A DNA stretch of 58,921 nucleotides, the filler included, from Nemertoderma westbladi (Eukaryota; Animalia; Xenacoelomorpha): the NCBI GenBank assembly GCA_032718475.1. It is 3 parts of 3 records of this genome, joined end to end, with 100 filler letters (N's around TTAATTAATTAA, not from the genome) between each part and the next. Parts side by side here need not be neighbours in the genome. Positions count along the whole stretch, not along the records: positions 1 to 24,800 come from JAUCBJ010006040.1; 2 more parts are not named here. One strand, 5' to 3'. Below, piece after piece: positions 4,985 through 54,261 of the stretch. Numbering within the stretch: the stretch's first letter is position 1; each line of letters opens with the position of its first letter. The notes beneath the pieces are model-generated. The model did no database searches, was not told where the DNA came from, and saw nothing but the letters and a program-made list of their open reading frames with translations. The position numbers and the translations under genes were made by a program.

Positions 4985-5747
4985 GTTAGTGTTTCACAGA
5001 TTAACAACGAAACACTAACAACTACACTATACAAAAAACCAACTAGCAATAAACTCCCGATTCTCTACGATACAGCTTCCATGATAAGAAATTACTACTA
5101 TCCGTAATTCGTAGCCAACTCCTACGCATCCACCGCAGATGTAGCGGGTCTAACGACTATACAAAACTCAGAGACGAATTCCTTGGCAAATGTCTACTCA
5201 GGTAGTACCCCCAGAACCTCCTTAACAAACTTAGACATTGGACTCCCCAAACTAGACCTAAAGACACCAACTCGAAACCCACATTTTACTTATCCACTAA
5301 CCAACAGATGAAGGGCGTGTTCCAAAATACTGTACGTAGATACTCCAAAAACTACGACCTTGACATCAACATTAATGTAGTCACGAAGAATCCCACATCA
5401 CTAGGACAAATACTAACCAAAAATAAAACTCAATCAAAAACACACACAAATAACACCACTAACGAGCCATGTAACTCTAGCCGCTGCCTTACATGCAAAA
5501 CTATCACTAACATACAACAGACACCATGGGATGAAAAGATAAAAAAACACTATACATGTAAGTCCTCACTGTATGTTACTTGGCCTGGTGTCACTGCCAC
5601 CCTACTCTATACTACATAGGCCAAACGAGACAGAAACTTCACGAACGCTTTAATGGACACCGCAACAACATACGACACTACCCCTCACGAGCCAATGACG
5701 GAAAAACACACGAAGACATACTCCTAGCTAGGCACATATACGGTTGT
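4985..5747 (+). pseudogene. Penelope-like retroelement, 5'-truncated: RT thumb, Cys linker and N-half of GIY-YIG endonuclease
   Basis: Manual translation across frameshifts and a stop: TTTLYKKPT..SFHDKKLLLSVIRSQLLRIHRRCS..PCNSSRCLTC..VCYLAWCHC..YYIGQTRQKLHERFNGHR..LARHIYG. Confidence 0.88.
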
Positions 5748-7740
5748 TGTTAAACAGGGGCGATCAGGAGCGCGTTATTACTGCCGCACTGCAGCACTGC
5801 TGCTAAACACAAAACTGCTTCTCACCGCTGGATGGCGCTAACCTGGCCGTTCGCTAATATATTTTACTAATTTTATACGGCTCCTGCAAATCGCTTGTTC
5901 CTTTCTCTGTTGATCGCTCAACAGAAAGCTAACTGTTCGAATCTATGAGCCACGCGGGAATAACCAAAACAATAAACCCGAATCGGCTCCCTAAGCTACT
6001 TAAAACGAGTGCGGGTGACCTAGCACTCAGAGCTCACTTATCGCAAAATACTGGAATTCACTGGCAGAACACATTGAATGTGAGAATGTTTTAAATGTTA
6101 AGGGGGATAGATCTGTTACTTTCCTAGGTGCTGAAACTTGGCCTTTGGCTGGTTTTAGACCAGCAAACTTACTACTGCTGTACTGTATACTGGACACTGC
6201 TGCCAGCCCGTTGCCCCGCTATTTTCAAATAACCGCCTAGCGTGAATAGTCTACAGTATTCTAAACAATTACTTAAACTACTCTCCGCTATGCTGCGTAC
6301 AAATTCTTATTTTATTTTATCGCTAAATTAATTACAGTCATAAATACAAATTCGCGTACTAATTACTAGATTTTCTAGAATACGTACTTCTAATTTATTA
6401 CGTACTGGGGCTTATACTAGCAACAGTCTAAATGCGGTATTATTTTGACCTAATTAGCAATTAATAAGCATAAACTAAGAAATGGAAATCAATCAAGGAA
6501 AACAGCGCCTATCTAAGCATTCACATTTAAGAATCAGGCACTCTTTAGCAACACAACACAAATAGCGTAGCAATTAGCTAGTAGTACGGCAGATAGCGCT
6601 AACTACACCAATCAGCTAGTGCACTAAATACCCGTACATTAGTACATCAGTATACCAGTATTAGTCATCCATCCAATCAGTCAGTCAGTCAGTCAGTGTA
6701 AGAACCACAGGTCACCCAAAGCCACACATGGGACTCCTAACTAAACCCAAATTCTGCCCCCCTAAAACTACTAAGTAGAGACGGAAATCTGGATCGTCAG
6801 CCCCCTAATACTGTAACAGCGGCTGGTCCCCGGTTCTCAACTGACTAACCCCGACCGCAACGGTGGCCCACCGCCAGCATCGCCCCGCTTTGGATCCTCT
6901 GCACTCCCTTCCGTCGCTTCCTAACAGTGCGCCCGCCGCGCCTACCGGTACCTTAGCCCTCCATTAGAATGAATAGCTACCGTAGCGGCGCATGCAATAA
7001 CAAACAGACTGACAGTCTAAAGAAATCCCGTGAGATTATTACATCTTAAATCACATAGGAATTAATAATCAAAAGTAGAAATCATAATTCAAGGTTGTAA
7101 TTTGCAGTAATTGATAATGAGAGATTAAGATAGACGAAAAATTAACAATTAACAAAAGGCAGAAACCAGAAACAAACTACAATACTGCCACTGGTATGAG
7201 AGATTAAGATATTAAGATGCACATACCGGAAATACAGCCAATTTATAGGTGATGCAACAGGGATGACGCAATAGTCCTCTCATTGGTTCCCCAATCCGCA
7301 ACACCATCAGACCAACCTGGAACAGCTGGGCCAATAAGGAAGCCGGATTGTGAACCTCATGGCTCCCAAATCGCAAATTATTACCATATATGGTAATGGA
7401 TCACGTCCTTGGCTGCTGAATGGTTAGGATTGCATCCCTGGATGCTGGCCCTATCAAGGCTAATAACAGCAAGCTTAAATCCAGGGTCCAACTTGCTACC
7501 CTGGAACTATCTACTTATATCCTATTACAAAATTACATAGGTAGGGCTACATACTATACAAAATGGATGAATACAAATATATGGGCATTTTATTTTCCTT
7601 ATCTAAATGTCATCGCGCATTATCATGTCTTATCTAAATAATTATACTGCATAATAACTAATATTGTGTACAGTATAACGGCTAATAATGTGTACTGCAT
7701 AATGGCTAATAATGTAAATACAGCGCCATATACCGTAACA
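5748..7740 (-). repeat. 3' LTR of BEL/Pao element
   Basis: TGTTAAAC...CCGTAACA. Matches 16317-18296 with roughly 35-40 differences counted by eye (~98%). A short purine-rich PPT-like TTGGAGCGG abuts it on the minus strand (7741-7749). Confidence 0.95.
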
Positions 7741-10351
7741 CCGCTCCAAGGGAAATCATGCAATGTTTCCCTCCAACTGTAGAAGAGTATAAGGCGATGT
7801 ATACAAAACAAAATAAATTTCCTTTCAAATTATCTAAATAACTTGGTACCATAATAATTCTACTATTTACAAATATTGCCATAGATATTGCATAATGAAT
7901 TTACATACAAATCAAATTTACAAAAAATATTATCTCTCTCAATGTTTAACGATTATTACATACAATTTAAATTTACAAAATATATTACTTTCATTTATTT
8001 ACAAATTGACGGTCTATCTATTGAAATGGAACATGGCTAGGACTATGTCCCCCATTTCCCATCTCAAATTAACGATCAACATTAACAAGATAAACTAAAT
8101 ATAAACGTATTTGAGGCTAAATGTTTAACTAAATATTATTGCATTTAAGGCTGACAATCAAATTAAATATAAAATACGTAATAATTTCTTTCATTTTCGG
8201 ACTTTACTTAATTTCTTATAAAAAACGCAAATCATCTTGGTTTGATGATTGCTCAGGTAAGTGAAAGGAGTAAGCCAAACCCGCGGGTTTGTCTCCCCAA
8301 TCACTTCCTTTGCCTCTTTCAATAAACTTTAGAGCAAATAAAGTCATATACACAAAATCAAATATAGTATAAAGTATTTACTATTTCCAACGGACTATAA
8401 AGTAAAAGTATTTCCTTTCAATATTTTTCGGCCTTCGAAAATAAAATTCTAAAATATGGATACGACTAGTGTATATGAGTCCAGTCGAATGATTGATCAA
8501 AACCTATGATATACATCAGAGCGACGATGATGTATATGTCTAGAGTATGTCGCTCCGTGATATTATAGTCTCATCGGCTAGCTCCTGGGTCTCTCGGGCT
8601 CGCTCCTCTCCTTTGTCCCCTCCCCAGATACACCAGTCTACCCCCTGTAGACTCTGTTGACGGCGTCCTTGAGGCGTCACTTCCCGGAACCGGCGTCAAT
8701 GTTCCCTGGGCACCGACTATCTCCCGACTGGTGCTCCTCCCTCGGCCCCGTCCCATTTGCCGTGTCCCTGTGGGTGCCTCCGCCAACTCCTCTTTCTTCA
8801 ACTGTAGAATGGAACTGCTCGTCCTTGGCTTGACGCTTGCCAAGGACTCCTCCTTCTGGTACTTGCCGCGAGCTGTGAGTTCCGGCTGTTGTCGCTGTGG
8901 GCGCCGCGGTCCTGATCCTCCACTCGTTCAGAGGTCAATAAACTAAACGAGTCTCCTTAGGCCGCCAATTGTGCGCTGGGTAATAAATCTAGACGTATAT
9001 ATCAGAGCGACGATGATATATAAAGGATTGGACATATTTGGGCTTAATAATGCGTGCGTCGAAACTTCCCAAAATAATTTGAAGTAAAATATTGTATAAA
9101 TCGCGGATCGTGGGTATGGTTAGTAGACGGATGGATGGCGCGAATCTCGTCTGGATACTCAGGCGTGACCTTCCTTTCCTGGTGAAGCGAAGTGAACGTG
9201 GTCCAGGAACTCGAGTCCCGTGCCGCTTCGCGCCGCGCCTCTAGGTCCTTATAGGCTCGGTATAGCGAAATGGCCGCTGCCGTCTGTATCAAACTGGGTG
9301 TCGAACAGGGTTTAATCTCCGTATACGGTAAATAGTCGTAACGGTCGGCGTAATGGGTCTCGGAGGTTGCTTTCCGCTGAAGTCAATACTGATCATCGGG
9401 TTGCTCATTGGGTAACCTCCCTCGTTGTATCTAAGGAACTGGTGAGCTTGACATCGCGTTAATATCGGTTCGGGATGTTGCTCGTCCAGTCGGTCGGGAA
9501 TTGCTAGTCTTGTTTATTCATGCATTCACCACATTTATAGAACAACTTGTATACGTTGAAACCCCTTGGCGTCGCCTCGTCCTCGCCTCAAGTCCTCCGG
9601 TAAAGATGCATCCCGTCGAATTGATCTCGGACGGCAGGTAGCGGTTCATCGTGTCGCAAATACATATATCCCAATAGTTCGTTACGCAAACCAATTATAC
9701 TGTGGGTAAATCAGTTAGATGGTGTGGAGGGACAAACTTCCCGAGCTACCCGGCCGCCTTCCAGCAGTTCAGGTTTGGCTCTCTAGATCCCGTCTCATTC
9801 CTAACTACCTTCTAACCTATTCCCATGCATAGCGCAAAAACTTCGGAGATAAACTGGCCATGACTGACTCACTTTTTGATGCCCAAACTACTCCCATTAC
9901 TTGTACTAGACTACAGTAGTTAAAAAGGACAATAGCTATGGCGTTCGACTATACCAAACCCGCAGGTTTGATAATCGAACACCTCACTCTACTGCAAACT
10001 ACTGAGTGGGGTCCGTGTACGCCTCAGGTGCTACTAACCTTTAGCACCTTGGTTGTTGTACTGTTGGCACCAATCTGTGCAAGTTACTGAACTCAATTTA
10101 CACTCCTACATAATATAGCCGTCACCATGGTTTCTAAATGCTATTTTCCAGGCTTCACAACTTTTCAAATTACTGTATATCTATAGAATAATTCTAAAAC
10201 GCATCTATACACAGCGTTTGGAATTGTCTTGGGTTCATTTCTAATTATTAAAATTTTTTAATTTTCCAAAATTTTTTGAAAATAAAATTTTTGATACCCA
10301 CCAGACAAATTCTCAACGCAAATCACCGCAATCCCGCTCCTATGCATAAAG

Positions 10352-10869
10352 AAATACTGGGAAACCGGAGTCATCTTGCACACACACCCAGACGTGCAAA
10401 ACATAATGCGCACAGTCACTGTGAAAATTAGGTGCATATGTCCGCACCCAAAGATGTGTAAAACTAATGGTTTACACACCTTGGACCGACCGGTCCAAGA
10501 TATCGTGTTATTAGAGGAGACACGCATCGAGACAGGAGATTATAATTTGTCTCCTGCCTCAAAACAAAGTTATTCGCAACTCACTTTGTATGCATTCCTC
10601 ATATGCAAATACTAGCATATGAGGAATGCATACAAAGTGAGTTGCGAATAACTTTGTTTTGAGGCAGGAGACAAATTATAATCTCCTGTCTCGATGCGTG
10701 TCTCCTCTAATAACACGATATCTTGGACCGGTCGGTCCAAGGTGTGTAAACCATTAGTTTTACACTTCTTTGGGTGCGGACATTTGCACCTAATTTTCAC
10801 AGTGACTGTGCGCATTATGTTTTGCACGTCTGGGTGTGTGTGCAAGATGACTCCGGTTTCCCAGTATTT
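10352..10869. repeat. Near-perfect inverted duplication (255-bp arms, 8-nt spacer) of the integrase C-terminus
   Basis: 10352-10606 is the reverse complement of 10615-10869 with two mismatches seen. The ORF track shows mirror peptides. Confidence 0.95.
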
Positions 10870-12600
10870 TCTCTTGATAATCGGTTCGGTTATCAATACA
10901 TAGTCTCCTCTTTGGAGGCTCCGAACCGTTTTGTACCACTTCGATCTGGTGGATATGGTGGGAAGATAATATTCTCTGTTAGCTTATTCAATCCCGCTAA
11001 CACCCCATAAAGTTAAGCCGATAAGCAATATTGGGGGCCATGAGATTGGGTAACCAATAACTCGTGTCACCCCAACAAAGTGGGAAGGAGAAGCACACAA
11101 TAAGGGTCAGGGGCCAAACCCCTAACTGAGAGAGAATAGGTGGAGTGAACGGGAACACTCCAAAAGGCGCCAACAAGGGTATCAACCAATCAGAGGGGGG
11201 AAAGGCACCGGCTGAGTACAGTAACAAGGCCACCCGTGCAATATAACCAGTTGGCAGTAATCATCTCATTCAATTATCTCAGTATCATATTGGTGCTAGT
11301 TAGGTTAGTTAGTTTAGCTAGGGAAGTACCGGGATTTTAATTACCGTCATCACCCGCCTTCCGTGTACAACAACGTATTATCTATATCTATATCTATATC
11401 TTTGTACCCAAACATTATACATGACGAACAATGCAAACTCTTTCACTCTTCACACACGGCGGGGACACGTGAATTAACAAACCGGATAAACCGGGATCCT
11501 TCCTGGATCCCGTCACATTCTCGCCAATATTCCCAGAATGTGTACGTGACAAATTGTGTCATTTTCTAGCTCTTACGACTATATAGGTCAGCACTAATGG
11601 GTTCTGATGCCGGCACAAGAAATGCTGGACTCTGCATTAGCAAATGATTTGGCGTTAATGCAACACCGTCTGGCAACATAGCTATCGGCCTCGAGTTCAG
11701 TGTATGCTCGATTTCAATGAAAGCTGTGACCAGTTCGTCGTCGGTAAGTTGTTTGTTCACAGGCAATGTCTTAGCAATAGCCTGTTTTATGGAACGAACT
11801 AAACGCTCCCAACTTCCTCCTCTCCAAGGACTTTCTGGAGTATTAAATCTCCACTCTACTCTTTGCGGCAAAAGTGCTGCAGAAATTTCTCTATTCTGCG
11901 CCGCCCTATGAGCCGCATTTAACTCGCTATTCCCTCCGACAAAGTTTGTACCCTTATCAGAGTAAAACGCCCTTACTAGTCCTCTCCTGGCCATAAATCT
12001 CTTTAAGGCCAGGAGCAGAGATTTGGTCGACATGTCTGCCACATGCTCTATATGTATGGCTCTACTAGCCATGCATGTCAGTAGCAGGCCCCCTCGCTTG
12101 TGGGTCAGCCGTCCACTCTTTGCTTCAATCGGACCAAAACAATCCACCCCCATATTTGTAAAAGGTGGGTCATATGCCTGCACTCTCGCTTCCGGGAGTT
12201 CAGCCATCTCCTGGTCCAATATTCTGGCATTCACTCTCTTGCAAACCAGACAGGCGTCGTACATAGTGCCTACTGCCCTGCTTGGCTGCAACAGAATGAA
12301 TCGCTGTCTCGCTGTCGACAAACAGTGTAACTTTCCCGCGTGATGCAATCGCTTGTGTATATCCTATAAAATCGCTCTTTGCAATTTTATTGGGTGACTA
12401 GGGATTATCACTGGGAACCGAAACTGTGAGTTTATGTCGACAGTCTGGATTCTCAATCTATGACAAATCAAGCCCTTATTGATTAATGGACTCCATTTTC
12501 TAAGGGGTTTATAGAGAACTGGTCATTGAGTCGATAATAGATAAAATTCCTTTGGGAAGGCACACATTTGATAATGCTTCAAATGTTATAATTCCGCTTG
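10612..12600 (-). pseudogene. BEL/Pao integrase (HHCC, DDE core, C-terminal DUF5641-like domain), interrupted by stops and a solo LTR
   Basis: HKRLHHAG..CLVC; GVDCFGP; SDKGTNFVGG; SPWRGGSWERLVRSIK. After removing the solo LTR the frame reads FWEYWRE-YYLPTISTRSKW..YWETG..RTVTVK..RPVQDIVLL. Confidence 0.9.
10977..11517. mobile_element. Solo LTR (541 bp) of another family nested in the integrase
   Basis: TGTTAG...GTCACA termini flanked by TTCTC on both sides (10972-10976, 11518-11522). Removing it restores the integrase frame. Confidence 0.88.
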
Positions 12601-13010
12601 ATCAATCTCATTCTCTGTCAGAGGTTGTTTCAATTTCTGAATTCGCTCAATATTAGTGCTCATTTGTTCTCCTAAATGTTTCGAATGTTTTATACAAAGG
12701 TACGAAATGTATCGGCTTAACCATGTCTTTTACAAATTGTCAGCCAAGAGGCAGACGAATTTAGTAATTTGTCATAAATACTACATGGCTCTAATGCCAG
12801 CAATGGTTGTCCGCTAATTAATGGAAGTTTCGAATCCAAACCCGCAGGTTTGGAAACCAAAGGCTCCATTGTTTCGGTCATTTTCTGTCCGTCACTTACC
12901 AACTGTGACTCTCGTGTAGTCTGGAAGGGTTGTTTTACGTCATAACTTACCCTTCCTGACCTAGTCGTCACGTAAGTCTGTAGGTCTGACAGGTCTCTGG
13001 GCCGCTCCAA

Positions 13011-13828
13011 TTACTCTTCAGGCCGCTCCAATGACTCTTCAGGCCGCTCCAATGACTTGAGTTTGGCTTTCGACTTTGACTTGGAGACTTTCTCCACTAT
13101 GACTTCTGCATCTTCTGGCATCGGATTGGTCACTATCTTTAGTCGTTCTGGCCAATGTTCCTGTGTCCTCGTTAGAAAATCAGGTCCATGCAACCAAAAC
13201 TCCTGGGACTCTTCCTGACAGAATTCCGCCGGCATTGCACCTCTCAAAGTTATGTCGGCCGGGTTCAACACTCCCGAACAATGTCTCCATTGTTCCTTCG
13301 TCGAAAAGTCGACGATCTGAGCGCGTCTGTTGGCCACAAATGTCTTTAGTGCTATATTGTCGGCCACAATGTATACTAACACTAAGAATGCATCCGTCCA
13401 ATAGAATAAGGTCAATGTCGTGTCTAACTCCTCTATTATCTGCTTACTTACCTCGACTGAAACTACTGCCGCCTGTAACTCTGCACGAGGGACAGTCATG
13501 TATTTGACCGGCATTGTCTTTGATCTAGAAGTCACAAAGGCCGTCTCAAACTTGTCCTGACTTACCTCTCGGCGAAGGTAGGCTACCATACCAAAGCCGG
13601 TGTCACTTGCGTCACTAAACATATGCAGTTTGAGATCAGCTGGAAATACCAGCTGATTCGGAAAGTAGGATCGGGGTATATCTATATTTTTCAATAGATG
13701 CAACTCGGCTTCCCACTCTCTCCACTGCTTTGCATGTATAGGGGATATTGGTTTGTCCCACTCTAAGTCGGATAACCAAATTTTCCTTATGCGCGCTTGT
13801 GCCTGTAATATTACCTGTATAGGAATTC
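13011..13828 (-). pseudogene. BEL/Pao pol fragment: Pao 'peptidase A17'/RNase H region
   Basis: IRKIWLSDLEWD..W..W..IPR; LHMFSDASDTGFG.VAYLR; TVPRAELQAA; FVANR; W.HCSGVLNPAD; WLHGPDFL. Confidence 0.92.
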
Positions 13829-15378
13829 TGGTCGTCGTCGACTTGCTTCCTCTCGTCCTCCGTTCTCGCTTCCTGTTCGGCCTTCTGCAGTGTGAACAGT
13901 TCTCGCAACTCGGTACCTACACTCGCCCCACATTCTTCGATCATTCGCATCCCCTTCTCGGCGATTTCATTCGCCTTCCTGGTCCGTTCTTCGCTCTCTA
14001 GGTTTAATCTCGCACTTTCCAACTGCGCCAGTTTACGTTCTTCTTCTTCCCTCGCTCGTCTCGCTGCGCTCTCTTCTTCCACGCGCGCCTTCTCTTCATA
14101 CAACGCCCGTCGCTCCTTCTTGATCTCGAGTTCTCGTTCTTTACGCTCGTGTTCGAGTTGAAGTTCGTATTCCATGCGCTCGCGTTCCTTCTGTTCGCGT
14201 TCCTTGCGCTCGCGTTCCGCTTGCTCACGCTTACCTTTCTCTTCCAACTCTCGCAACTTTGCGTCTAACTTACGTGTGCGCTCCCGTTCCCGCTCGGCTT
14301 CCTTCCGTGCTTCCGATGCACGCAAAACTTCCACTTGTTGTTCGTCTAGTCGGCGTCTTTTCTCCTCTGCCGAGTTATGAGAAACAAGGGATCTAGCACA
14401 TATAACCTTCCCTCGCGAGTGACTAACCTGGGAATCGCCACTGTCTCTGGATGCGTCGTCGGGTGGAGTCAACGTCCTCTGTTGGATGTTCTCCGTCATC
14501 GGTAGCACCTGGCCTGGTACCACCACTCCATTCTGTATCAGCCAGCTAGTAACTTCCCTCTGATACCGGCGCTCTTCCTTGTCTTGCGTCTCTTCACGCT
14601 CCACTAACTCTCTCAACTCCGCGTCACTCACCTGAGTCACCTGCGCTTGTGATGCCCATAGCAACCAGTTCTCCGTCCTAACTCGTCGGAATCGCTCCGA
14701 TAACGCGCGGTGCTCCAACGAGGCTGCTAAAACCCTATCTTAAACCCTCGTCGCCACGTTGCTTGACTGAGACTCCACTGCTTTCTTTGCTAGGACTGCA
14801 AGCTCCTCCGTCTGCTTGAATAACGTTGAGTTATATCCCCTTCTAATTTCTACTAACCCTTCCCTTCCGATGTTACCTGAGTCGGCTAGCATCTTCCTTA
14901 CCTTGTCCGTCGTCCGAGTTATATGTCCGGCATGCGCGCGAAGTTTCTTCTTTATCGCGATGTCTAGTTCTCTCTCGCTTACCTGACTTACACTTGGTGG
15001 ACTTGAAGGATTATTCTGGGAACTACGGGTACTCCTTATAGCCACTGGGACCACGGCACTTACCATACACACAGGTCTGGAAACCGGGCTCTGGGCTCTC
15101 GCTTCTGCTACACTACCCTCCCTATCACTCACCTCTGTCCGGGCTGCTATGCAATCCTTCCTTACAGTAGTGGTAGGGGATCCTAATACTATTACTGGTG
15201 GTCCTTGTTCTTCCTCACTAGTTACTGTCTCGTCCTCCTGTTCACTTACGTCAGCGTCGCTCGCTGCGTCGTCATAGTCGGCATTGTCATCGACAGTAAT
15301 ATTTACACTATCGTCAGTCGGCGGTCCAGCCGCCGTCTCATAGCTGTCCTCTAGTGCCTCCTTGTCTGAGACACTCAT
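13829..15378 (-). pseudogene. gag-like N-terminal region (acidic head, long E/R coiled coil) of the BEL/Pao element, one in-frame stop
   Basis: ORFs 14740-15378 and 13636-14718 share a frame. Position downstream of the 5' LTR. Fused out of frame to the RNase H region at about 13828. Confidence 0.75.
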
Positions 15379-16316
15379 AGTCTAAATAATGTTTTACCTT
15401 GCGGCTAAAATCTCGCAAAATTTCGAGATATATATATAATTTAATCGAAAATACGATCAAATTATTTGTCAAATAATTGGTTGTCCAAAACGTCAAAATA
15501 AATTCGCAATGCAATATTGTGAATTTAATAGGGTATAGTTATAGCAAATACCAGTACAATATTTAAACAAAAATATTATTCTATAGCTATTATATAGCAT
15601 TTAAATACCGGTATGACACAAAATAGTTTCTGAATCTAATTCAAAATATTCAGAATTAATTTGCCACCCAAATATTTCTAATTTTACATATATAGCTCTA
15701 ATCAACGCAATTTTAATTTCAAATATTATATGTATCCACTAGCGCGTGGCTACACCTTTGGGTTGCAACTCTCTCTCTCTCTCTCTCTCTCTCTAACTTG
15801 AGCGATTCAAAAAACCATGGTCGGCTAAACCTAACTAACCTAACTAATAAATTGAGTTCAACTTCGCAGTTAAACAACCGGTAACCTTTTACTGCTTCCA
15901 CAAACACAATAGTGCCAACAGAACAACTAACCTTGTTTGCTGTGAGATTCCACGTCCGCGTCCAAAGTTTCAGGCTCTTCGCTGATTGCAAACCGAACCC
16001 GCAGACCCACACAAACCCCAAACTCAGAAGCTCTATCTCGCCATGTATCTCCAGATGGTATAAAATAATTAAGCGGTTATCCAACATACCGGTACAAAAC
16101 TCTAGATTTTATTATATATAAATTTGGACCAAAACTGAATTCTCACAAACCTAGCTAAAATTTTCAAAACTTACTAATTTACAATTTACCCTAACGGCCC
16201 AATAAATTGCTGTATTCCACGATTAGTAAACAAATGTTTCTTACTGTTGCAAAGCAACAGCAAAATAAAAAGTGGTTCTTACTGTACGTAGTACAGTAAG
16301 TCAAAGTGGTTCTTAC

Positions 16317-18296
16317 TGTTAAACAGGGGCGATCAGGAGCACGTTATTACTGCCGCACTACAGCACTGCTGCTAAACACAAAACTGCTTCTCACCGCTGG
16401 ATGGCGCTAACCTGGCCGTTCGCTAATATATTTTACTAATTTTTTTACGGCTCCTGCAAATCGCTTGTTCCTTTCTCTGTTGATCGCTCAACAGAGAGCT
16501 AACTGTTCGAATCTATGAGCCATGCGGGAATAACCAAAACAATAAACCCAAATCGGCTCCCTAAGCTACTTAAAACGAGTGCGGGTGACCTAGCACTCAG
16601 AGCTCACTTATCGCAAAATACTGGAATTCACTGGCAGAACACATTGAATGTGATAATGTTTTAAATGTTAAGGGGATAGATCTGTTACTTTCCTAGGTGC
16701 TGAAACTTGGCCTTTGGCTGGTTTTAGACCAGCAAACTTACTACTGCTGTACTGTATACTGGACACTGCTGCCAGCCCGTTGCCCCGCTATTTTCAAATA
16801 AACGCCTAGCGTGAATAGTCTACAGTATTCTAAACAATTACTTAAACTACTCTCCGCTATGCTGCGTACAAATTCTTATTTTATTTTATCGCTAAATTAA
16901 TTACAGTCATAAATACAAATTTGCGTACTAATTACTAGATTTTCCAGAATACGTACTTCTAATTTATTACGTACTGGGGCTTATACTAGCAACAGTCTAA
17001 ATGCGGTATTATTTTGACCTAATTAGCAATTAATAAGCATAAACTAAGAAATGGAAATCAATCAAGGGAAACAGCGCCTATCTAAGCATTCACATTTAAG
17101 AATCAGGCACTCTTTAGCAACACAACACAAATAGCGTAGCAATTAGATAGTAGTACGGCAGATAGCGCTAACTACACCAATCAGCTAGTACATCAGTTAG
17201 TACATCAGTATACCAGTATTAGTCATCCATCCAATCAGTCAGTCAGTCAGTCAGTGTAAGAACCACAGGTCACCCAAAGCCACACATGGGACTCCTAACT
17301 AAACCCAAATTCTGCCCCCCTAAAACTACAAAGTAGAGACAGAAATCTGGATCGTCAGCCCCCTAATACTGTAACAGTGGCTGGTCCCCAGTCCTCAACT
17401 GACTAACCCCGACCGCAACGGTGGCCCCCGCCAGCGTCGCCCCGCTTTGGATCCTCTGCACTCCCTTCCGTCGCTTCCTCCCAGTGCGCCCGCCGCGCCT
17501 ACCGGTACCTTAGCCCTCCATTAGAATGAATTGCTACCGTAGCGGCACATGCAATCACAAACAGTCTGACAGTCTAAAGAAATCCCGTGGGATTATCACA
17601 TCTTAAATCACATAGGAATAAATAATCAAAGTAGAAATCATAATTCAAGGTTGTAATTTGCAGTAATTGATAATGAGAGATTAAGATAGACGAAAAATTA
17701 ACAATTAACAAACGGCAGAAACCAGAAACAAACTACAATACTGCCACTGGTATGAGAGATTAAGAGATTAAGATGCACATACCGGAAATACAGCCAATTT
17801 ATAGGTGATGCAACAGGGATGACGCAATAGTCTTCTCATTGGTTCCCCAATCCGCCCCACCATCAGACCAACCTGGAACAGCTGGGCCAATAAGGAAGCC
17901 GGATTGTGAACTTCATGGCTCCCAAATCGCAAATTATTACCATATATGGTAATGGATCACGTCCTTGGCTGCTGAATGGTTAGGATTGCATCCCTGGATG
18001 CTGGCCCTATCAAGGCTAATAACAGCAAGCTTAAATCCAGGGTCCAACTTGCTACCCTGGAACTATCTACTTATATCCTATTACAAAATTACATAGGTAG
18101 GGCTACATACTATACAAAATGGATGAATACAAATATATGGGCATTTTATTTTCCTTATCTAAATGTCATCGCGCATTATCATGTCTTATCTAAATAATTA
18201 TACTGCATAATAACTAATATTGTGTACAGTATAACGGCTAATAATGTGTACGGCATAATGGCTAATAATGTAAATACAGCGCCATATACCGTAACA
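16317..18296 (-). repeat. 5' LTR of BEL/Pao element
   Basis: Direct repeat of 5748-7740. CCAAT and TGACGCA motifs at about 17820-17890 and a minus-strand TATAAAT near 17797-17803. Confidence 0.95.
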
Positions 18297-18301
18297 GTTG
18301 T

Positions 18302-18900
18302 GGTTTAGAAAATCTACGCACCGCAACTATAAAACAATTCACAAACATACCCGAACTACTAGCAACGGAAGCTAACCTAATCTATACATACAACCCCCCA
18401 CTTAACGTAGCAAGACCAGCAATCTAAACCCAACTTTTTATATAATACACCCTATATTCTATATCTTACACAACTACAGTGCCCTCTATAGCGAATTTCC
18501 GGGGTTTCTATGTGCTTTTCCCCTATCTTCTTTTTTGTTTTTGTCTTCGGTTTTTCTGTTTCTTGTGATTTCTTACTCTGTAAAAATTCCCCGGCAATAT
18601 GTAGACAGATAACCCAACCTGTAACCCTATATTTGTACTTTAGATTGACAGCTCACAACTAACTCGGTGAATTTTCCCTATCACAATTACCTTAAGTTAT
18701 ACAGTACATACATACACGTTAACCTTTCTGGGATTCACCTATCAGGTATTTCCCCTTTAAAACTTATATATATATATATATATATAGATCCCCACCTTTT
18801 CCTGTTAGTTGCCAGTACATAGTCTGATGCAGACCGGTAGGTCGAAAACGTTTACTATTATATCTTTATCTAATATAATATAACCAGCTAAAGACCCTCA
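18302..18900 (+). mobile_element. 3' part of the Penelope-like element (GIY-YIG C-half and 3' terminal region)
   Basis: Continues the frame broken at 5747: (C)GLENLRTATIKQF..LLATEANLIYTYNPPLNVARPAI*, with the conserved GIY-YIG Glu and terminal Asn. Confidence 0.82.
18819..18858 (+). ncRNA. Minimal type-I hammerhead-ribozyme-like motif (variant core)
   Basis: ATAGT-CTGATGCA-GACC ggta GGTC-GAA-AACGTT-T-ACTAT: stem I, stem II and palindromic stem III, at the 3' end of a Penelope-like element. Confidence 0.7.
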
Positions 18901-19713: not shown

Positions 19714-20731
19714 CCACCATACTTTCTCCACCATACTTTCTCCACCATACTTTATCCACCATACTTTCTCCACCATACTTTCTCCACTATACTTTCTCCA
19801 CCATACTTTCTCCACCATACTTTCTCCACCATACGTTCTCCACCATACTTTCTACTTTCTCCACCATACTTTCTCCACCATACTTTCTCCACCATACTTT
19901 CTCCACCATACTTTCTCCACCATACTTTCTACTTTTTCCACCATACTTTCTCCACCATACTTTCTACTTTCTCCACCATACTTTCTCCACCATACTTTCT
20001 CCACCATACTTTCTCCACCATACTTTCTACTTTCTCCACCATACTTTCTCCACCATACTTTCTACTTTCTCCACCATACTTTATCCACCATACTTTCTCC
20101 ACCATACTTTCTCCACCATACTTTCTACTTTCTCCACCATACTTTCTCCACCATACTTTCTACTTTCTCCACCATACTTTATCCACCATACTTTCTACTT
20201 TCTCCACCATACTTTCTACTTTCTCCACCATACTTTCTCCACCATACTTTCTCCACCATACTTTCTCCACCATACTTTCTCCACCATACTTTTTCCACCA
20301 TACTTTCTCCACCATACTTTCTCAACCATACTTTCTCCACCATACTTTCTCCACCATACTTTCTCCACCATACTTTCTACTTTCTCCACCATACTTTCTC
20401 CACCATACTTTCTACTTTCTCCACCATACTTTCTCCACCATACTTTCTCCACCATACTTTCTCAACCATACTTTCTCCACCATACTTTCTCCACCATACT
20501 TTCTCCACCATACTTTCTCCACCATACTTTCTCCACCATACTTTCTCCACCATACTTTCTCCACCATACTTTCTCCACCATACTTTCTCCACCATACTTT
20601 CTCCACCATACTTTCTCCACCATACTTTCTCAACCATACTTTCTCCACCATACTTTCTCCACCATACTTTCTCCACCATACTTTCTCCACCATACTTTCT
20701 CCACCATACTTTACTACCATACTTTACTACC
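19714..20731. repeat. 14-bp minisatellite (CCATACTTTCTCCA) with 7-bp TACTTTC insertions
   Basis: Direct reading of the array. Confidence 0.96.
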
Positions 20732-21881
20732 ACACCTTCCCTTCATTCTGAGATAAACTTCTTCTACATATTGAAATTATCAAACTATACAATCGAACTC
20801 CAATAAATCACTTGAGTTGTATTTTACATCACAGGTTAGTTTTGTACTGTTTACTGTATTGTAAATAATAAAATAAATCTACCACGAACATAAAACTTGC
20901 AATAAATTACAACAAAACCTATTGAGTACAACTCAATAAATTACTGTATAACTGTTCTCTGCCTGCATTACCACCAATGAGTTCCATATTTATTTCTACT
21001 TAATACAACATATGTTACCTATGAATAAAACCTATTTCTGTACCTTATAAGTATACCTTATTTATATCAATTACATTACCAAGTTCCTTAATCATTGATA
21101 ATCACAATGGACAAATCATAATACACACACACATTTTTTTTCGCAAAATTTATATATTTTCCAATTTATTTATTATTATAAATTTATAAAGCTTTCAAAC
21201 TCCAAAAACTTTTGGAGAATATTAATTATTAATGAAAAAGAACAAGAATGCTACTTAGTATTAAAATATAATATCTAATGTAAGAACCGGCCCAACCTCC
21301 ACAGTGTCAACCCATATCCTTAACTAAATCTACATAATTATCAATATAAATTTATCCAGCAAAACATCCGAGCAAAACTTATCATCGAGCCAAGTTTCAG
21401 AGATTGTTAAAAATGTCGGATTGGATTAGGCGATTGATTTTATCGAATTCGAAACTTTTTGATGCAGACCTCAGGCCTTTAACCCTTTCCGGCCGACTGT
21501 ATATTTTTGTATACACTGAATTTATTTCACTACGGATTGCATAATTTTAACTAATTATAGTTGGTTTCATCCAATTGTGGCACTATCACACTTCCTTTAT
21601 TTATAAATTACCGATTCTGATTGGATAATTGTAGTAGAAGGCTTCAATGAACGATTTTAGATGCCGTGTTTTCAGGTATTGACATGATGACTACCTGGTA
21701 TAGGAAAGATGGTTATTTAACGGCTTTAGCAAAGCGATATTGAGAATTTTGATTGGGTATTCCAAAGATGGATTTTCCAATGAGATAATAATATTTCCAG
21801 GATAAACTTTACAGTACATGTAGGCTGGTAGTGTTATTGATAAACCACTGTATACATTTGTCTACGTTAGGTTTATAAAGT

Positions 21882-22747
21882 TGGGGAGTAGAAGTGGTGC
21901 AGCCACAGTTGTGGAGTAGATGTGGTGCAGCACCGTTGGGGAGTAGATATGATTCAGCCACCGTTTGGGTGATTTGGTGCATCCACCATTGGGGTGTACG
22001 CCTAGATGTGGTGCAGCCACCATATGGGAGTCGATGTGTGACCATTGGGGTGTAGATGTGGCGCAGCCACCATGGGGAGTAGATGTTGACCATAGGGTAG
22101 TAAAGGTGATGCAGCCACCATTGTGGATAGATGTGGTGCAGTCACCATTGGGGAGTAGATGTGGAACAGCCTCCATTGTGGAGTAGATGTGGCGTAGCCA
22201 CCATAGGGGAGTAGATGTTGACCATTGGGCCTTGGGAGTAGATGTGATGCAGCCACTATTGGGGAGTAGATGTGGCGCAGTCACCATTGGGCCTTGGGAG
22301 TAGATGTGATGCAGCCACTAATGGGGAGTAGATGTGGCGCAGTCACCATTGGGGAGTAAATCTGGCGCACCCACCATTAGGGAGTAGATGTGATGCAGCC
22401 ACTATTTGGGAGTAGATGTGGCGCAGTCACCATTGGGCCTTGGGAGTAGATGTGATGCAGCCACTAATGGGGAGTCGATGTGGCGCAGTCACCATTGGGG
22501 AGTAAATCTGGCGCACCCACCATTGATGAGTAGATGTGGTGCAGCTACCATTGGGGAGTAGATGCTGACCATTGATGAGTAGATGTGATGCAGCCACCAT
22601 AGTGAAGTAGATGCTGACCATTAATGAGTAGATGTGGTGTAGCCACCATATGGAGTAGATGTTTACCATTGGGCCTTGGGAGTAGATGTGTTTCAGCCAC
22701 CATTGCGGAGTAGATGTGGTGCAGCCACCGCTGGGGAGTAGATGTTG
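21882..22747. repeat. Degenerate minisatellite, ~29-bp core GGGGAGTAGATGTGGTGCAGCCACCATT with shorter variants
   Basis: About 30 imperfect copies of the GAGTAGATGT..CCATT motif. Confidence 0.9.
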
Positions 22748-23049
22748 TACACCCACAGTAAACAGGCAGGGCAGATAGACATACAAACAATTGAAAAAAG
22801 TCAGTCGATACTGTTTTTTTCAAACTTGAACAAAACTGACAGAAAAAAACCTCCACTGTATAATTCTTCATTTTAAGTTTTTTTGTCGCACTGTGTTGCT
22901 TTTAAACAACGTGTGTTGTGAAAACACACAAAATTATAAAATTTTGGCATTTTGGTAAATTTCACAGTATTGACAGGTTTTTATTACCAAAAAACATAAT
23001 TTAAGTTTTTTTAATTAAAATTGCCTGCTCGTTGTATGCTTGTTTATTC

Positions 23050-23309: not shown

Positions 23310-23789
23310 TACTACTACTAGGATCGGCATGCTGCATTGCAGCTGCATTTTTAAGAATGCTGTGCCGGCTTGTCAACAAAATTGCACCGCCACAACTCCC
23401 TATCACCCATGACATTTGCTAGATCATCCGCATCTTTAAGGCCAGTGTCCTTTACGATGCGTCTCAAGAAAGTCATGGGCTGTCCACCATGCTTATTCAC
23501 TCCATGAGGCTGCCAAAGTACAAGATTATGCACTGGCTGGTCCTCACGGCGAAAGCAATGTCCTGCAAAGCGGAGGCGATTTTGTTCTAGTGTCAAGCTG
23601 GGGGGAACCAATGAGACACCTCCAATCTTATATAGTGTCTGGTTGGATATGTTTGCAATGTACTTGACACAATGTACCCGGCGTAGCATTCTTGTGAATG
23701 TGCCATCCAGAGATTTGGTGTCCTCAGCAGTTAGAGCCCAGCATGGACTCCCATAGAGGAGTACTAGAACTACTGCTGCTCTAAATAAT
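23310..23789 (-). mobile_element. RTE-clade LINE 3' fragment with (TAG)n tail
   Basis: RLFRAAVV.VLLYG..W.LT..DGTFTRMLR..RLRFAGHCFR..LVLWQP..DRELWR. Confidence 0.88.
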
Positions 23790-23900
23790 CGGACATAAAT
23801 AATCTACATAGCATGTAGACTTACATTAATGTCACGCAGGAGTTAAGAATTCTTACTGATCCATTAATCAGCTCAGGAGATGCTTGTATACTGAGGACCA

Positions 23901-24376
23901 ATTATTTAGAGCAGCAGTAGTTCCAGTACTCCTCTATGGGTGTCCATGCTGGGCACTAACTGCTGAGGACACCAAATTTCTGGATGGCACATTCACAAGA
24001 ATGCTACGCCGGGTTCATTGTGTCAAGTACATTGCAAACATATCCAACCAGACACTATATAACATTGGAGGTGTCTCATTGGTTCCCCCAAGCTTGACAC
24101 TAGAACAAAATCACCTCCGCTTTGCAGGACATTGCTTTCGCCGTGAGGACCAGCCAGTGCATAATCTTGTACTTTGGCAGCCTCATGGAGTGAATAAGCA
24201 TGGTGGACAGCCTATGACTTTCTTGAGACGCATCTTAAAGGACACTGGCCTTGAAGATGCGGATGATCTAGCAAATGTCATGGGTGATAGGGAGTTGTGG
24301 TGGTGCAATTTTGTCGATAAGCCGGCCCAGCATTCTTAAAAATGCAGCTGCAATGCAGCATGTCGATCCTAGTAGT
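23901..24376 (+). mobile_element. RTE-clade LINE 3' fragment, inverted twin of 23310-23789
   Basis: Same peptide and 3' UTR on the opposite strand (ORF 23884-24339). Confidence 0.88.
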
Positions 24377-24800
24377 AAAAATACTGGAGCAACACTAGTG
24401 CAGTGAGTGAATAGCCCATACAATCAGAACCACCTTTGGAAACTTCCTAGCTTTTTCTTCGAGAATATTAGATGTGGCAAAGCCTTCACAATATAGGCTC
24501 CCTGATGCCCAGTGTTTCGGCGAGAAAGGTCATTAGGAAAGGGACTCACAGAAATTCTGGCCGCTCTCTCTCTCCTCTAGGGGGTAAATCAGGTTGCCCG
24601 TCAAAAGATAACTCACAGAAAATACATAATGCCAAACGTTAGTACCAAATCATTTCAGAACTAATTTGCACCTATGGCCACATGATACAACATTAGTAAT
24701 GAGATGCTACTATTTTTAGACTGATGATTCCCATTTGTTATATCATTGATATTTTAGGTAATTTTATTTAATTTGACAAATATGTTATTATGGGCTCAAC

Positions 24801-24900: not shown

Positions 24901-27900
24901 AAATACCGGTATGCAGTTTACACTTATAGTGTATATATATAAGTATAATTACAAACTAGAATTAATTACAAGTACCGGTATAATTTCAGCCGAAATTTAT
25001 AGAAATAAAGATAATAGGCCTATCGTAAATACCGGTATATCAATTATTTCAAATAATTGAATTTCTGATACTTTAGGGTTACTTGGTTACTTTACTTACT
25101 TTATTACCGTTATTTGAGCAGTAATCCAACTGATGTTGAGACCTAATTGTTATATGGTAGGCCTACGATTTATAAATCGTTAGATTTGATTTATAATATA
25201 TATATACCCGTTTTAATGGGTTTTGTCAATGTTTGAAATAAATGTTATTATTTCTGGGGAGTAATCACTACACAAAGCGGTGAGCTTTCAGTGAAGTGTT
25301 ACGTACAGGACACTAAAACAAATAATACTAATTTACCTAAGTTACTTAATACTACAAATTACGTACAATTCGGGTTGAGATTACAATCTCTAAATAAACA
25401 CAAAATTTTACAAAAACACAAATACGAATTTTTAGGGTAATTTTACAAGAAGTCTACAAACCAGCCTAACAAAGGGTTAGAAAACTGATTATTACAGCGG
25501 ACAGGGTACTACGGTATTTGAAATAATAAGTAGTAGCAAATACACTGCGTTGTCTAGATAGGAAAATACCACCGCCTGACGACCTATAGCCGTATCGCTA
25601 TAGGTTCTACGTTATGTATCACGGAGTGTTCCTACCTAGAAGTTAATAGAGCTAATCGAATGTGCCTATCAACCACTTTACAACTCAAATATAATGGCTA
25701 CAATAATTACTTCGGGAAAGCACTGTACACTAAACCCTAAATTAGGTACGAGTACTTGTACAACAAATAATCAGTAGTTAAATATACTTGAACAGCTAAA
25801 AGAACCACGGCATCTGCTGGAGTGACCGATGCACAAAATCACCAGTCTTTACCTACGCCGAGCAGCCCGTATAGTACCGGGGTTAATTTAACTATAACGG
25901 TATGTATAACAAACACAATTACTGTAGGAACAAACTTAGGGAATGAATGTTGCGAATAATCGCATAAACTCTGAATAATAAATATTACGCTACGCGTACA
26001 AACTACTCAAATAAAATACAGACCGAACACTGACAGACTACTATCAAGCCTAAACAAACTACGGTATATGCAGACTCCGAAATGATTAGGGAGTATGCGC
26101 TCTAACCCAGTAGTGCGACTTATTCTTTAGCTGGGGGTTTACCTTACAGCGTTGCTGCCCCTACTGCCTAATCGTACTTAATCGGACAGATGATCTACAC
26201 ACGCGGCAATCCGTTCAGACCTAATAACAGCCAGACAACTATCCAGCCTACAAATTATTTAAATAAAATTATACGCTACCCGTACAGACTTACACAAACA
26301 AAGTACAGACTAAACGATGGCAGACTACTCTCAAGCCTAAATAAAATACAGGACATGCAGACTCCGAAATGATTAGGGAGTATGCGCTCTAACCCAGTAG
26401 TGCGACTTATTCTTTAGTTGGGGGATTTACCTTACAGCGTTGCTGCCCCTACTTCCTAATCGTACTTAATCGGACAGTTGCTCTACACACACTGCAATCC
26501 GTTCAGACTTAACAGCAATCAGACAACAGCTCAGCCTACAAATTGTCTGTACAATCTGATGAGGTTTACACGCCTTCTGTTCAATACTGGCCTACAAATA
26601 AATAAAACTTGACAGAAATAAGTAAAAACTCAATAAAAAACCAGGGCGGGCCCTCCCTGATTAATTATTAAGGCCTACCGGTATATAATTATCAAAATCG
26701 AATAATACTGCTGTACCTGTACTGCTGTAGGTACCGGTCCGGGTGGTTAGGTAGTCAGGCCTACTGGGTACCGGTTGCCGGTACTTCAGCTTTATTGCCT
26801 ACTGCAATACAGAAGCTATATCCTTTAATGTTCGCGCTTTCAGACCTTTGGCAGTTTAACCCGCCAAATTAGAATGTCTTCTAGATAATAAATCTGCTTT
26901 TTAGTCTATGACAAGTATTTGATTCACTACACTAGTCGAAACCAATCCGTGCGCGACCATTCACCCGCTGGATATTCCCGGGAGATTGGGTTCGACGGTT
27001 TAATTTGTATTGCTATGTAAGCCTAATGTATTATTCGACTGACAGTATTATATAATCTCTGACAATATTATTCACCTTCGGTAATATTAACAGTTCCTTT
27101 AGGACGTGGCGCTTTATCTACATAAACAGAGTTATGACTTAAACTACTCGCAACGATATGGCTTAATTATAATCCACATATATGGCGCATTCTTTAGGAA
27201 TTGCTTCTTTAACAGACTCACTCATACACTATGCTGCACAATACTGCACACTAATCTGCCAATCTTCACTGATTTTAGTCACATATAAAAGGAACACAGG
27301 CTGACTCATGTAGGGTCTATCAAATAACATTAGATTCACTTCAAACCACTTTAACATAAGTCACAATCGTTATTGGTAACCTTTCTCTCTTACCTTCGGT
27401 ATATCAAGAATATTGGGTTGCGGGGTTATTTATCGTTATTCCAAATATAATTATTCATCAACCATATTATGAAGATCTGACAGCAAATAGCAGTATAAAA
27501 CAACAACTGAACAGTTAGGTACATCGGTACATCAGTACCGGTATGTCAGCAGTGAGATATTTACGGTTAAAGGATATATGCCCTTTATAATTAAACCTAC
27601 CAGTGTACGACTAAAAAGCAGTACAGCACAAAATATTTATAAGCCGTTCTTTCTTTGGCTCAAGACTGAATGATAAACACTGCACATAGGCATTTCGTCA
27701 TTTCTCGGAAATTCTCTGTACAAGGAGCCACAAAAACGCTCTCATTGGCTGACTGAGCTGAGAGACACCGTAGAACAAAGGAAATCAACACGTATGAATG
27801 TCAGCTGTTAACCGTAGTCATAGTAACTACTGTTCAAGAGTAGCTATCACTCCTTTGCGTCACAAATTGCCATAGAATCATAAAATATACCTTTCACAAT

Positions 27901-28046
27901 ACACATACGGAGGAAATAAGTCTTAGATCCTCTAAAAACACCGATACAGTAATAATACGGTCTCTTACACTTATTAAATCAACTACAGAGTATTTTAATG
28001 TAAAAGATAATAAAAACAACGGGGCAATTCAGCAAAGGCTTTTACA
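24901..28046 (-). mobile_element. LTR retrotransposon family 2, copy A: putative 5' LTR (25297-28046) plus leader, cut by contig end
   Basis: Aligns with about 49590-52871. Homology ends at TTTTACA(AGT). Inner TGTTAC boundary inferred. Copy B leads into a gag-like ORF. Confidence 0.72.
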
Positions 28047-29084
28047 AGTTTTTCTTACTTGTATTTAAATTCTCGCACGAAATCTGTTTTGCTAACAAAA
28101 CTGACTCAAGATATAGTGCTCCGTAATGTTGTGTATTGAAAGGGGTTAGTATGGATTGTAAATAAACTTACCTTGTAGCTGAATCCTTTCGTAGAACTCA
28201 GGCCTTTAACCCCCATATATGTTTTCACCTGCACTTTAGTTATTTCTATAAAGTCGCCCTCCTTGCCAACAAACTCCGACTCCCCCCAAATTGTAAGAAC
28301 TGCCGATGAGGAGTGGTCACGGAGGCACACCTCCGTAATGTTTACCTCTCCGTTTTTCCCCGGAACAGGTCGGGGTGGTGCGACATCCACTATCCATGCG
28401 TATATAAACTCTGTAATAAATAAAATGTTTTGGTTATATTATGTCAACTTATCATTGTTCTGGTGAAATCCTCTTAACGCTGCAAGGTACCAAAAAAATA
28501 AAGTTAAGTAAATTTTCTTCGGCCGCTAGCTAGTCCAGGGATTACGCACAAAGACTTATTACGACTTATTTTCAGTGCGGTCCCCGCAGAACGTTACTTG
28601 GAAACTCCAGTACTCATTTAGCTACCACTTAAGGATGCAAGGCAGAGATGCGCCATGGCTGGTCCCTTTAAATCATTCGTGCCGAAACGAAAACTGCCCT
28701 GGCCCATGTGAGGATCGAACCCACGACCTACGGGAGATGTGAATTCAATGCGACCACTACACCAAGGTAGAACTACTTTGTTGCATTGTGGCCTATACAG
28801 TAAGAGGTACTGAAAAGTCTGAGAAGTGTTACTTTTCAAGTAACGATAAGTAAATAGTTATTGTTGTTACGAAAAATAGCTGAGAAAAAAGTTCAAGTGT
28901 CAAATTTTGTAAAAAATTGAAAAAATATTAAAACTAAGACCTACAAGAGTGTTTAGAAATATATTAAATTCCACTCTATCTGACATTTATATTAAAATAA
29001 AATAAATATTTTACAAAGTAGATACTTACCACTTACATATCGCCGATCCGGCCAACCGCCCAAACGTTTCAAAGAAGCCTCCAT
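28042..29084 (-). CDS. Putative 3-exon small OB-fold (SSB/RPA-like) protein, ~110 aa; exons 29084-29030, 28410-28172, 28083-28042
   Basis: Canonical GTAAGT donors and CAG acceptors in compatible phases give MEASLKRLGGWPDRRYVSEFIYAWIVDVAPPRPVPGKNGEVNITEVCLRDHSSSAVLTIWGESEFVGKEGDFIEITKVQVKTYMGVKGLSSTKGFSYKISCENLNTSKKNL. The L.D.S..V.LTIWG..EGD.I.I..V.V..Y.G pattern is OB-fold-like. Exon 3 is the least certain. Confidence 0.65.
28492..28773 (-). mobile_element. tRNA-derived SINE (central domain resembles MetaSINE type) in intron 1 of the OB-fold gene
   Basis: A box TGGTGTAGTGG, B box GGTTCGATCC, central CTCTGCCTTGCATCCTTAAGTGGTAGCTAAATGAGTAC, T-rich tail. Confidence 0.75.
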
Positions 29085-30277: not shown

Positions 30278-31499
30278 GATAAAATATAATATCAACATAA
30301 AATATAAATGTACTTTAGAGTCATTTACTCTGCACTGCTTCAAAAAAATAAAAACGAATTAACCATAAAATATCATCTGCTTCCTCAAAACATTCGATTG
30401 CCAAAGAAAGGGCCTCAGCCGCACCATCCTCCCCCCAATGCTGCATTACTTTGTGCGGCTGGAATGGAGGCACAGGTTTTTGTTATTTGTTGTTATTGGC
30501 ATATTCGTTATTTACATTTATTATTCGAGTTGCTGTAAGTATTTTTGTAGGTTATTACAAAAATATATATTATTTGGTGGAATGGGTTAGCGAAAAAATT
30601 GTGACAAAAGTGAGAAAATATTTTATGAGTAACTACGGGTATAGGCTACGTATAGATGAAAATAATACCTATAATAACTATTTAAGTGGTGGCAAAAAAA
30701 GTAGGCTTTTTTGTCCAGCGTTATTATTTGGCGATCGTACCGAGATAAATAAGGGATTAATTTTTATTGCGTCCAGTCCCCCCCCCCCCCCCCCCCTCCC
30801 TATCTGCATTTTCTAGGTACTAAAAAAATGTAAAAAAAGTGTCTCCATCGATATTTCATCAGTAACGCTGGAGTTATTCTTCATCCTTATAGTGTGTTTT
30901 TGGTAACATTGGAAATCTGGCTGTGCAAGGATTCAAAAAATTTATAAACATTAGAATTTGGTTGGGAAATATCTGAAGTATGGGCATTCGAAAGCATGTA
31001 TTTGCTTTCTATGAAGGCCATATATTCTATTAAATAAATAAATACAACATATTCTGGAACATTTTGTTTATCCTATTCCCATACATGGCTGGGCAGACAA
31101 AAAACCCTATTTAATCATACTATTACGTAGCTATTCAAACATAAACAAAACGTTCTAGAATTTGGCTGTTACAAATATCATGTAATCTCATTAAAAGATT
31201 TGTAGAACAATTTCGGGGGGGGGGGGGGACCTGAATGAAGCACTGTCCTAATCGAGATAATTATGGTAGAGGTGTATCGATAGTATGGATGGTGGCAGAT
31301 TCAATAATTATGGGTGATGGAATATTTAGGGTGGTGCAATATAATTATTCTATTTGTTATTTGTACGTGATTTCAAGTAATTTTATTTTTATTTATTATC
31401 AAGAATTAGGTATATTAAATCATATCATTTACGATAATATGAAACAAAGATAGGGCCGCGGGGATCAAGAAGCCAGTTAGGGTCAAAATCCACACCGGT

Positions 31500-43313: not shown

Positions 43314-43346
43314 AGAGGATTCAACCAGTGACTGTGCTGCGTAACC

Positions 43347-52871: not shown

Positions 52872-52909
52872 AGTCCCATGCCATGATAGTATGTCTCTAA
52901 ACGCATGAC

Positions 52910-54060: not shown

Positions 54061-54261
54061 GCGATCCTACGGTACCGGTTGCCGGTACTACTGTACTAAG
54101 ATTCATTAACATTTTGAAATTGTACGGTACTGCGGTAGGCCTATTGTTTATTTCATTCCATTGTTATTTGAATTGAATTTACATTATTATTTGCAACTGG
54201 CTGGGGTTACTGCTGTACTATTCACCGGACCGGTACCACAACCACACCGAGGTTTCGAGAT

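Follow-up and report, generated by a model that had tools for sequence, protein, structure and literature searches.

The question raised by this locus is how a BEL/Pao element starts reverse transcription when the sequence directly behind its 5' LTR does not resemble a binding site for a tRNA. We analyzed a window of 58,921 nt from Nemertoderma westbladi, i.e., the whole stretch of DNA, composed of three parts of assembly GCA_032718475.1 joined end to end. One such element, hereafter the window element, is located on its minus strand (Table 1). The primer-binding site (PBS) of this family very probably pairs with an 11-nt stretch in its own LTR, and its own RNA, rather than a tRNA, would then prime reverse transcription.

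The window element carries paired TG...CA LTRs and a 5-bp target-site duplication, as is characteristic of BEL/Pao. Its pol is of the Pao type, with Peptidase_A17 followed by the integrase region and BEL/Pao elements as the nearest relatives. The 284 homologues of the frame at 11566-12363 in the integrase region were BEL/Pao polyproteins with identities of up to 44%, and nearly all of the 120 homologues among the matches listed (284 in total) contained PF05380 or PF18701. Protease and RT were not detected in the window element upon comparison with three intact relatives, which aligned to it only from approximately residue 1,000-1,260 on; the gag-like frames abut A17. These likely gag frames showed neither a Pfam match nor a tblastn match to the three intact relatives. 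An RT tree is impossible for the window element because the copy is internally deleted. By its frames, it is a defective, non-autonomous BEL/Pao element, assigned through A17 and integrase only. The C-terminal part of the integrase region contains a 255-nt inverted duplication with 99% identity (10352-10606 / 10615-10869).

Table 1. Features of the window element, in coordinates of the window.
Feature	Position	Strand	Basis or remark
BEL/Pao window element	18296-5748	minus	LTR pair, target duplication, Pao pol remnants
5' LTR, TGTTA...TAACA, 1980 nt	16317..18296	(-)	sequence comparison
3' LTR	5748..7740	(-)	97.3% identity to 5' LTR across 1994 alignment columns
Target-site duplication ACAAC, 5' side	18297..18301	(-)	
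Target-site duplication ACAAC, 3' side	5743..5747	(-)	
Promoter motifs CCAAT (17842) and TATA (17803)	17798..17846	(-)	predicted start ~17775 (inferred)
Candidate intron: weak donors 17508 or 17502, pyrimidine-rich acceptors 17326 or 17320	17320..17508	(-)	
LTR arm upstream of primer, predicted to pair with primer and following (ACTG)n run; predicted lock	17384..17412	(-)	folding
Predicted self-primer in 5' LTR, exact PBS complement, 11-nt slot	17256..17266	(-)	
Two AATAAA poly(A) signals (16968, 16885)	16880..16968	(-)	~290 / 370 nt downstream of primer
PBS GTAAGAACCAC, no TGG, abuts 5' LTR	16306..16316	(-)	
Second exact PBS copy (16282-16272), half within predicted 10-bp hairpin (16300-16278)	16272..16300	(-)	
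Third PBS-like unit, degenerate (16244-16235), predicted 11-bp hairpin	16235..16264	(-)	
Likely gag remnant: two broken frames, coiled-coil-like	13636..15381	(-)	
Pao Peptidase_A17 frame (PF05380)	13011..13916	(-)	Pfam, E 2e-30
Integrase region	11524..12630	(-)	36-44% identity to BEL/Pao polyproteins; no Pfam match of its own
Likely PPT, short purine-rich tract adjoining 3' LTR	7741..7747	(-)	
Same 11-mer in 3' LTR, copy from which primer site would be regenerated	6698..6708	(-)	

Elsewhere in the window, a gene without introns (54172-55791) resembles DBT, the E2 component of branched-chain keto acid dehydrogenase, with 40-53% identity to animal and fungal proteins and only approximately 50% to any animal protein among the matches listed; either the host is divergent or the gene is a retrocopy. 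Judged by these matches, the host is likely an animal that is distant from those represented in the protein set searched. LINE-like elements, with frames for an endonuclease and an RT, were located at 39816-44222 and 33919-35609. Tandem arrays, i.e., a 33-nt satellite and two others, occupied 184-2500, 19714-20739 and 21881-22756. A 489-nt inverted repeat (96%) and a nested foldback-like region were observed at 23313-24377 and 30833-32357, and a 3-kb repeat occurred twice with 80-92% identity (24901-28049 and 49662-52874), each copy adjoining N runs.

We compared the PBS with the LTR of the same element. GTAAGAACCAC and its LTR complement match over 11 nt, and the match ends at the LTR edge with no gap after the LTR. 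The 18-nt PBS for host tRNA-Arg or tRNA-Gly of the ICTV description is absent from the window element, and the first TGG past the 5' LTR is at 16219, 97 nt away. A complement of at least 11 nt was present in 15 of 20,000 dinucleotide-shuffled LTRs (0.00075). Likewise, an 11-nt complement was reached at 5 of 8,546 internal positions, two of which were the PBS and its copy, and the host-DNA control yielded an 11-nt match rate of 0.0022. That is, a PBS-LTR match of 11 nt by chance alone is unlikely, though not impossible. The first-pass annotation had described an exact complement in both LTRs (17266-17256 and 6708-6698), a match stopping at the LTR edge and no TGG right after the 5' LTR, all of which were borne out; its estimate of approximately 5e-4 for chance was of the right order.

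Four DNA runs, all from one organism (at most three samples), contained many and varied copies of the family. The second PBS copy was missing from some family copies in these runs, and joints in the runs indicated that copies carry different numbers of PBS-like units behind the LTR (16236-16312). A CTGT...ACAG hairpin of varying length precedes each of these units. Three other candidates were considered and rejected. Pairing at the second PBS copy had P 0 in all four folds, and this copy is absent from some family members. An 11-mer extended by splicing was sought in the window LTR and none was found; the best match stays at 11 nt and contiguous. For a ribozyme or a tRNA-like primer in the LTR, Rfam returned two sub-threshold bacterial sRNA matches (15700-18400) and ARAGORN returned none.

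The same runs showed that the PBS and the primer slot vary together. The PBS variant was recorded first, and the primer region of the runs was examined afterwards. In an X1 contig (depth 30.9), the LTR end was followed by a PBS that kept its first five letters and was changed at positions 6-9 and 11. Another X1 contig (depth 25.9) matched 17267-17319 and then contained a primer slot with the exactly complementary five changes, and an X2 record covered the same span. The PBS variant and the primer variant are represented by one X1 contig each, which are separate and not physically linked. The matched swap comprises 5 changes of 11, and the five bases nearest the primer 3' end are unchanged, which is the outcome that templated copying of a primer into the PBS would predict. 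For Tf1 cDNA, a copied PBS is described in the portion of PMC11042837 available to us. This natural five-letter swap on both sides resembles a compensatory-mutation experiment and provides the exact positions.

In two variants, the primer slot (17256-17266) had been exchanged en bloc. A third slot variant with similar flanks was present in X1 and X2 and had no PBS partner among the matches listed. Across the four runs, 17256-17266 showed no substitution reaching 2% in the main family; this conservation is not significant alone because only 6 sites vary over 146 nt. No LTR DNA joint with GT-AG ends, as a trace of a spliced copy, was present among the matches listed. In one X1 contig, position 18296, where the LTR starts, was joined to 17235 in the (ACTG)n run, 21 nt downstream of the primer site; insertion of one copy into the LTR of another is the likely cause.

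Next to the family itself, we assessed relatives from other sources. A metagenome scan yielded 80 loci with approximately 40% identity in the integrase and protein identities of approximately 32-45%; a search of viral contigs yielded no relative. For a swap test, in which each PBS was paired with its own and with foreign LTRs, 18 of the 80 loci had a usable LTR and leader and, together with the window element, provided 19 elements. The other 62 loci were near-duplicates of those included or were judged by eye not to contain both LTR and leader. The LTR end was obtained by comparison of the two copies in 9 of the 18 relatives (the 3' copy of L058 ends with its contig, and the end in L049 is blurred), and in the other nine each ACA upstream of the ORF was tested as a possible LTR end. 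Because some relatives are kin (L036/L031, L014/L026, L034/L037 and L038/L059), the number of independent cases is below 18.

All 19 elements had a complement of 10-15 nt in their own LTR, versus at least 10 nt in 19 of 342 foreign pairs, and the highest foreign-pair matches were between kin sharing a primer. The diagonal sum was reached in none of 200,000 permutations, both for all 19 elements and for the 10 with LTR ends from copy comparison. The PBS started 0-5 nt past the LTR end in every element, with GT in 16, AT in three and TGG in none, and the LTR side of the duplex ended in AC or AT throughout. The first-pass annotation had proposed covariation across families as a test. With own-LTR pairing in 19 of 19 elements and TGG in none, the outcome was positive, and the covariation within the family and across relatives supports its suggestion that this BEL/Pao lineage may prime without a tRNA.

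A blind scan of the 33 whole-ORF loci among the 80 was weaker than the swap test and points in the same direction. Matches of at least 10 nt were present in 18 of 33 loci versus 166 of 1056 foreign pairs, and those of at least 12 nt in 10 of 33 versus 17 of 1056. Among the 18 loci with a match, two had it away from the LTR end, and several of the 15 misses were in contigs without part of the LTR. ACA followed by TGG was present upstream of the ORF in eight of the 33 loci; it was away from the LTR end in all six with a known end, the rest being L002 and L007. In the same scan, L002, L005, L006 and L030 each matched their own LTR over 10-12 nt beginning with GT, and the match of L030 was at offset 0 across an intron.

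The primer was contiguous in 5 of the 18 relatives as well as in the window element. In the other 13, the best match existed only across an LTR intron of the form GT[AG]AG...YAG (66-372 nt), and the first exon supplied 4-8 nt of the primer. The unspliced LTR gave only 6 nt in L040 and L058. In L036, the 117-nt intron present in the 3' copy was missing precisely from the 5' copy, and 83 nt on the upstream side of the junction were retained there. If the contig derives from RNA, this suggests genuine splicing and a primer that is internal. In many relatives, splicing of an LTR intron likely builds the primer. Comparison of L036:1-214 with L036:6769-7265 showed a spliced 5' LTR and an unspliced 3' LTR, which is what the intron would require to persist from one generation to the next.

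We then considered how the primer of the window element would be exposed. In predicted folds, pairing of the upstream LTR arm with the primer amounted to approximately -31 kcal/mol in both LTRs. For unspliced RNA from 17775, primer-PBS pairing was predicted with P 0 at a cost of 13.9 kcal/mol. RNA beginning at 17266 showed P values of 0.89-0.99 per pair. For RNA from an initiator-like site at 17400, the pairing was part of the minimum-energy fold at a cost of 0, but P was only 0.11. Removal of the candidate intron, which would delete the arm, resulted in P values of 0.47 or 0.91 (17508 or 17502 to 17326). No GT[AG]AG donor was found upstream of the primer in the window LTR; therefore, the candidate intron is weak. 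We put forward unlocking by splicing as a hypothesis that is less likely than not: its donors are weak, and the folding result would be the same if the arm were lost in some other way. The predicted fold consists of the central 11 bp, a long helix (17252-17212/16416-16382) and a U5 stem (16378-16354/16343-16317), and was compared with the three-duplex 'pretzel' of Tf1/sushi. A wider reading would have the host spliceosome join two LTR exons into the primer in most relatives within a large aquatic-animal BEL/Pao branch, with removal of a ~180-nt intron unlocking the hairpin-locked primer in the present family; we offer it tentatively and regard it as more likely to be wrong than right. If it is true, only processed RNA would start reverse transcription, and the unspliced 3' LTR would pass the intron to the progeny.

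In the mechanism that we infer, the RNA would start at ~17775, so the primer would be located ~500 nt inside R (TATA 537 nt upstream). The primer would be freed from the arm at 17412-17384 by splicing of the intron (~17505-17325), by chaperone refolding or by a second start at ~17400, and would then pair with 16316-16306. By analogy with Tf1, an intact partner would provide RT/RNase H in trans, and this enzyme would cut after 17256 to leave a 3' end ...AC, and the capped upstream RNA piece could act as the primer. Strong-stop DNA would extend from 16317 to 17255 and then jump via the stretch of R, 290-370 nt long, that precedes the poly(A) signal; since the primer is upstream of both poly(A) signals, the general scheme of LTR replication would leave enough R for strand transfer. 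The primer site would be regenerated from the 3' LTR and the PBS recopied from the primer, so that both would change together. A caveat raised at the outset was that the TATA would place the 11-mer ~500 nt inside the transcript and imply a second start site or a different processing step. The TATA (17803) and the internal position stand, whereas the second start site would not be needed because a single cut after 17256 would free the primer. The TATA 537 nt upstream and the 83 nt kept upstream of the junction in L036 both point to an internal rather than a 5'-terminal primer.

The match between LTR and PBS could have other causes. The duplex may be structural, with a role in packaging, dimerization or translation control, while a host RNA, a protein or another agent primes. 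Covariation shows pairing, not priming; moreover, the region contains several predicted hairpins and three PBS-like units, and the site is ~500 nt from the predicted start, unlike in Tf1. We nevertheless consider a purely structural role unlikely, as all 19 duplexes begin 0-5 nt from the LTR end, have AC or AT ends and leave no TGG as a substitute, and as five matched changes replaced as a block are explained most simply by templated copying of a primer. It is also conceivable that a host tRNA half or another small RNA primes, as in copia or Bianca, and that the LTR match is a mimic or by-product. Half-tRNA priming without TGG is known from the accessible part of PMC6317226. However, the PBS differs between and within families and tracks its own LTR, often across an intron junction, and a single host RNA cannot serve both PBS variants; in addition, the window contains no tRNA gene (ARAGORN), and the two sub-threshold bacterial matches were the only ones from Rfam in 15700-18400. 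Priming by such a host RNA is thus very improbable.

Chance would require that a splice-donor-like ACA/GTAAG motif, repeated three times in a dead copy, met an accidental match in the LTR. The GTAAG donor core does recur at 16316, 16282 and 16244, the copy is defective, and the host-DNA background for 11 nt is 0.002. Against this, the five-letter change is matched on both sides and the swap test on relatives gave the same answer; the chance reading has already been largely refuted, and we regard it as scarcely credible. Priming by the RNA of the family itself is the reading that we compare with known systems below.

The primer of Tf1 is 11 nt long. According to the available portions of two papers (PMC4600332, PMC10085805), Tf1 and Tf2 of S. 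pombe, Tj1, Tosmo1-3 and the Tf1/sushi Ty3/gypsy chromoviruses self-prime, and the RNA 5' end is the primer. The window element resembles Tf1/sushi in that it has no tRNA PBS, its PBS abuts the 5' LTR and would pair with LTR-encoded RNA of its own, and flanking duplexes are predicted; a covarying PBS complementary to its own LTR, by which Tf1/sushi is recognized, is present. It differs in that the Tf1 primer is at the RNA 5' end, whereas the primer of the window element is predicted ~500 nt inside. In addition, the intron-spanning primer of 13 of 18 relatives does not appear in the Tf1/sushi descriptions, as far as the same portions extend (PMC4600332, PMC10085805). The pol of the window element is not that of a Ty3/gypsy chromovirus; because of its Pao A17 and BEL/Pao homologues, the window element is placed outside the Tf1/sushi group, although it would work like Tf1. 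Self-priming has also been predicted from sequence for the plant elements Tcn1 (gypsy) and TAR/Houba/Osr-1 (copia) in PMC6317226, which was available in part. Since these lineages are separate from Tf1, self-priming arose more than once. They differ from the window element in being plant elements of other superfamilies, and that part of the source describes no BEL/Pao or splice-built primer.

According to ICTV, Belpaoviridae have LTRs of 0.2-1.2 kb and a PBS of 18 nt that binds host tRNA-Arg or tRNA-Gly (PMC8742986), and an excerpt of PMC4580426 gives a tRNA-Tyr PBS for the BEL/Pao element Achilles. The window element shares with them the LTRs, Pao A17, integrase homology, domain order and an animal host; however, it has a self-complementary 11-nt PBS and 2-kb LTRs. 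In our judgement, the tRNA PBS of the ICTV profile describes type members and is not a criterion of the family. The C. elegans element Cer7, also BEL/Pao, has its own encoded tRNA-like primer, whereas ARAGORN found none in the window.

In a quick integrase tree, the window element was on a long branch with no firm position. The A17 tree grouped it with L040 (splice type) and L080 (support 94), apart from the hexapod group (support 99). In trees built without named reference elements, the relatives grouped with fish, echinoderm, coral and mollusc proteins, separate from hexapod ones; labeling them Sinbad/Dan is a guess from the host ranges in the part of PMC3118150 at hand. A word search for PBS, priming and tRNA gave no mention in the obtainable text of the Sinbad paper (PMC554778) or PMC3118150, and the sections at hand of PMC3286476, PMC13524379, PMC3601003 and PMC5443660 contain nothing on BEL/Pao priming. 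Our literature search found no BEL/Pao self-priming or splice-built primer, and a remark in older element descriptions is possible.

Among the LTR classes in the animal genomes that PMC3118150 surveyed, BEL/Pao ranks second in abundance, as stated in the part available. If a wide branch of it self-primes, the description as tRNA-primed would be wrong there, and BEL/Pao would be the third LTR superfamily with self-priming; PBS finders based on tRNAs would miss such elements. An internal primer, often spanning a splice junction, would be a route unlike that of Tf1, one in which host splicing is linked directly to the initiation of reverse transcription. The window element adds two things to this comparison: five letter changes that match on both sides within a single family, and a hairpin predicted to lock the primer.
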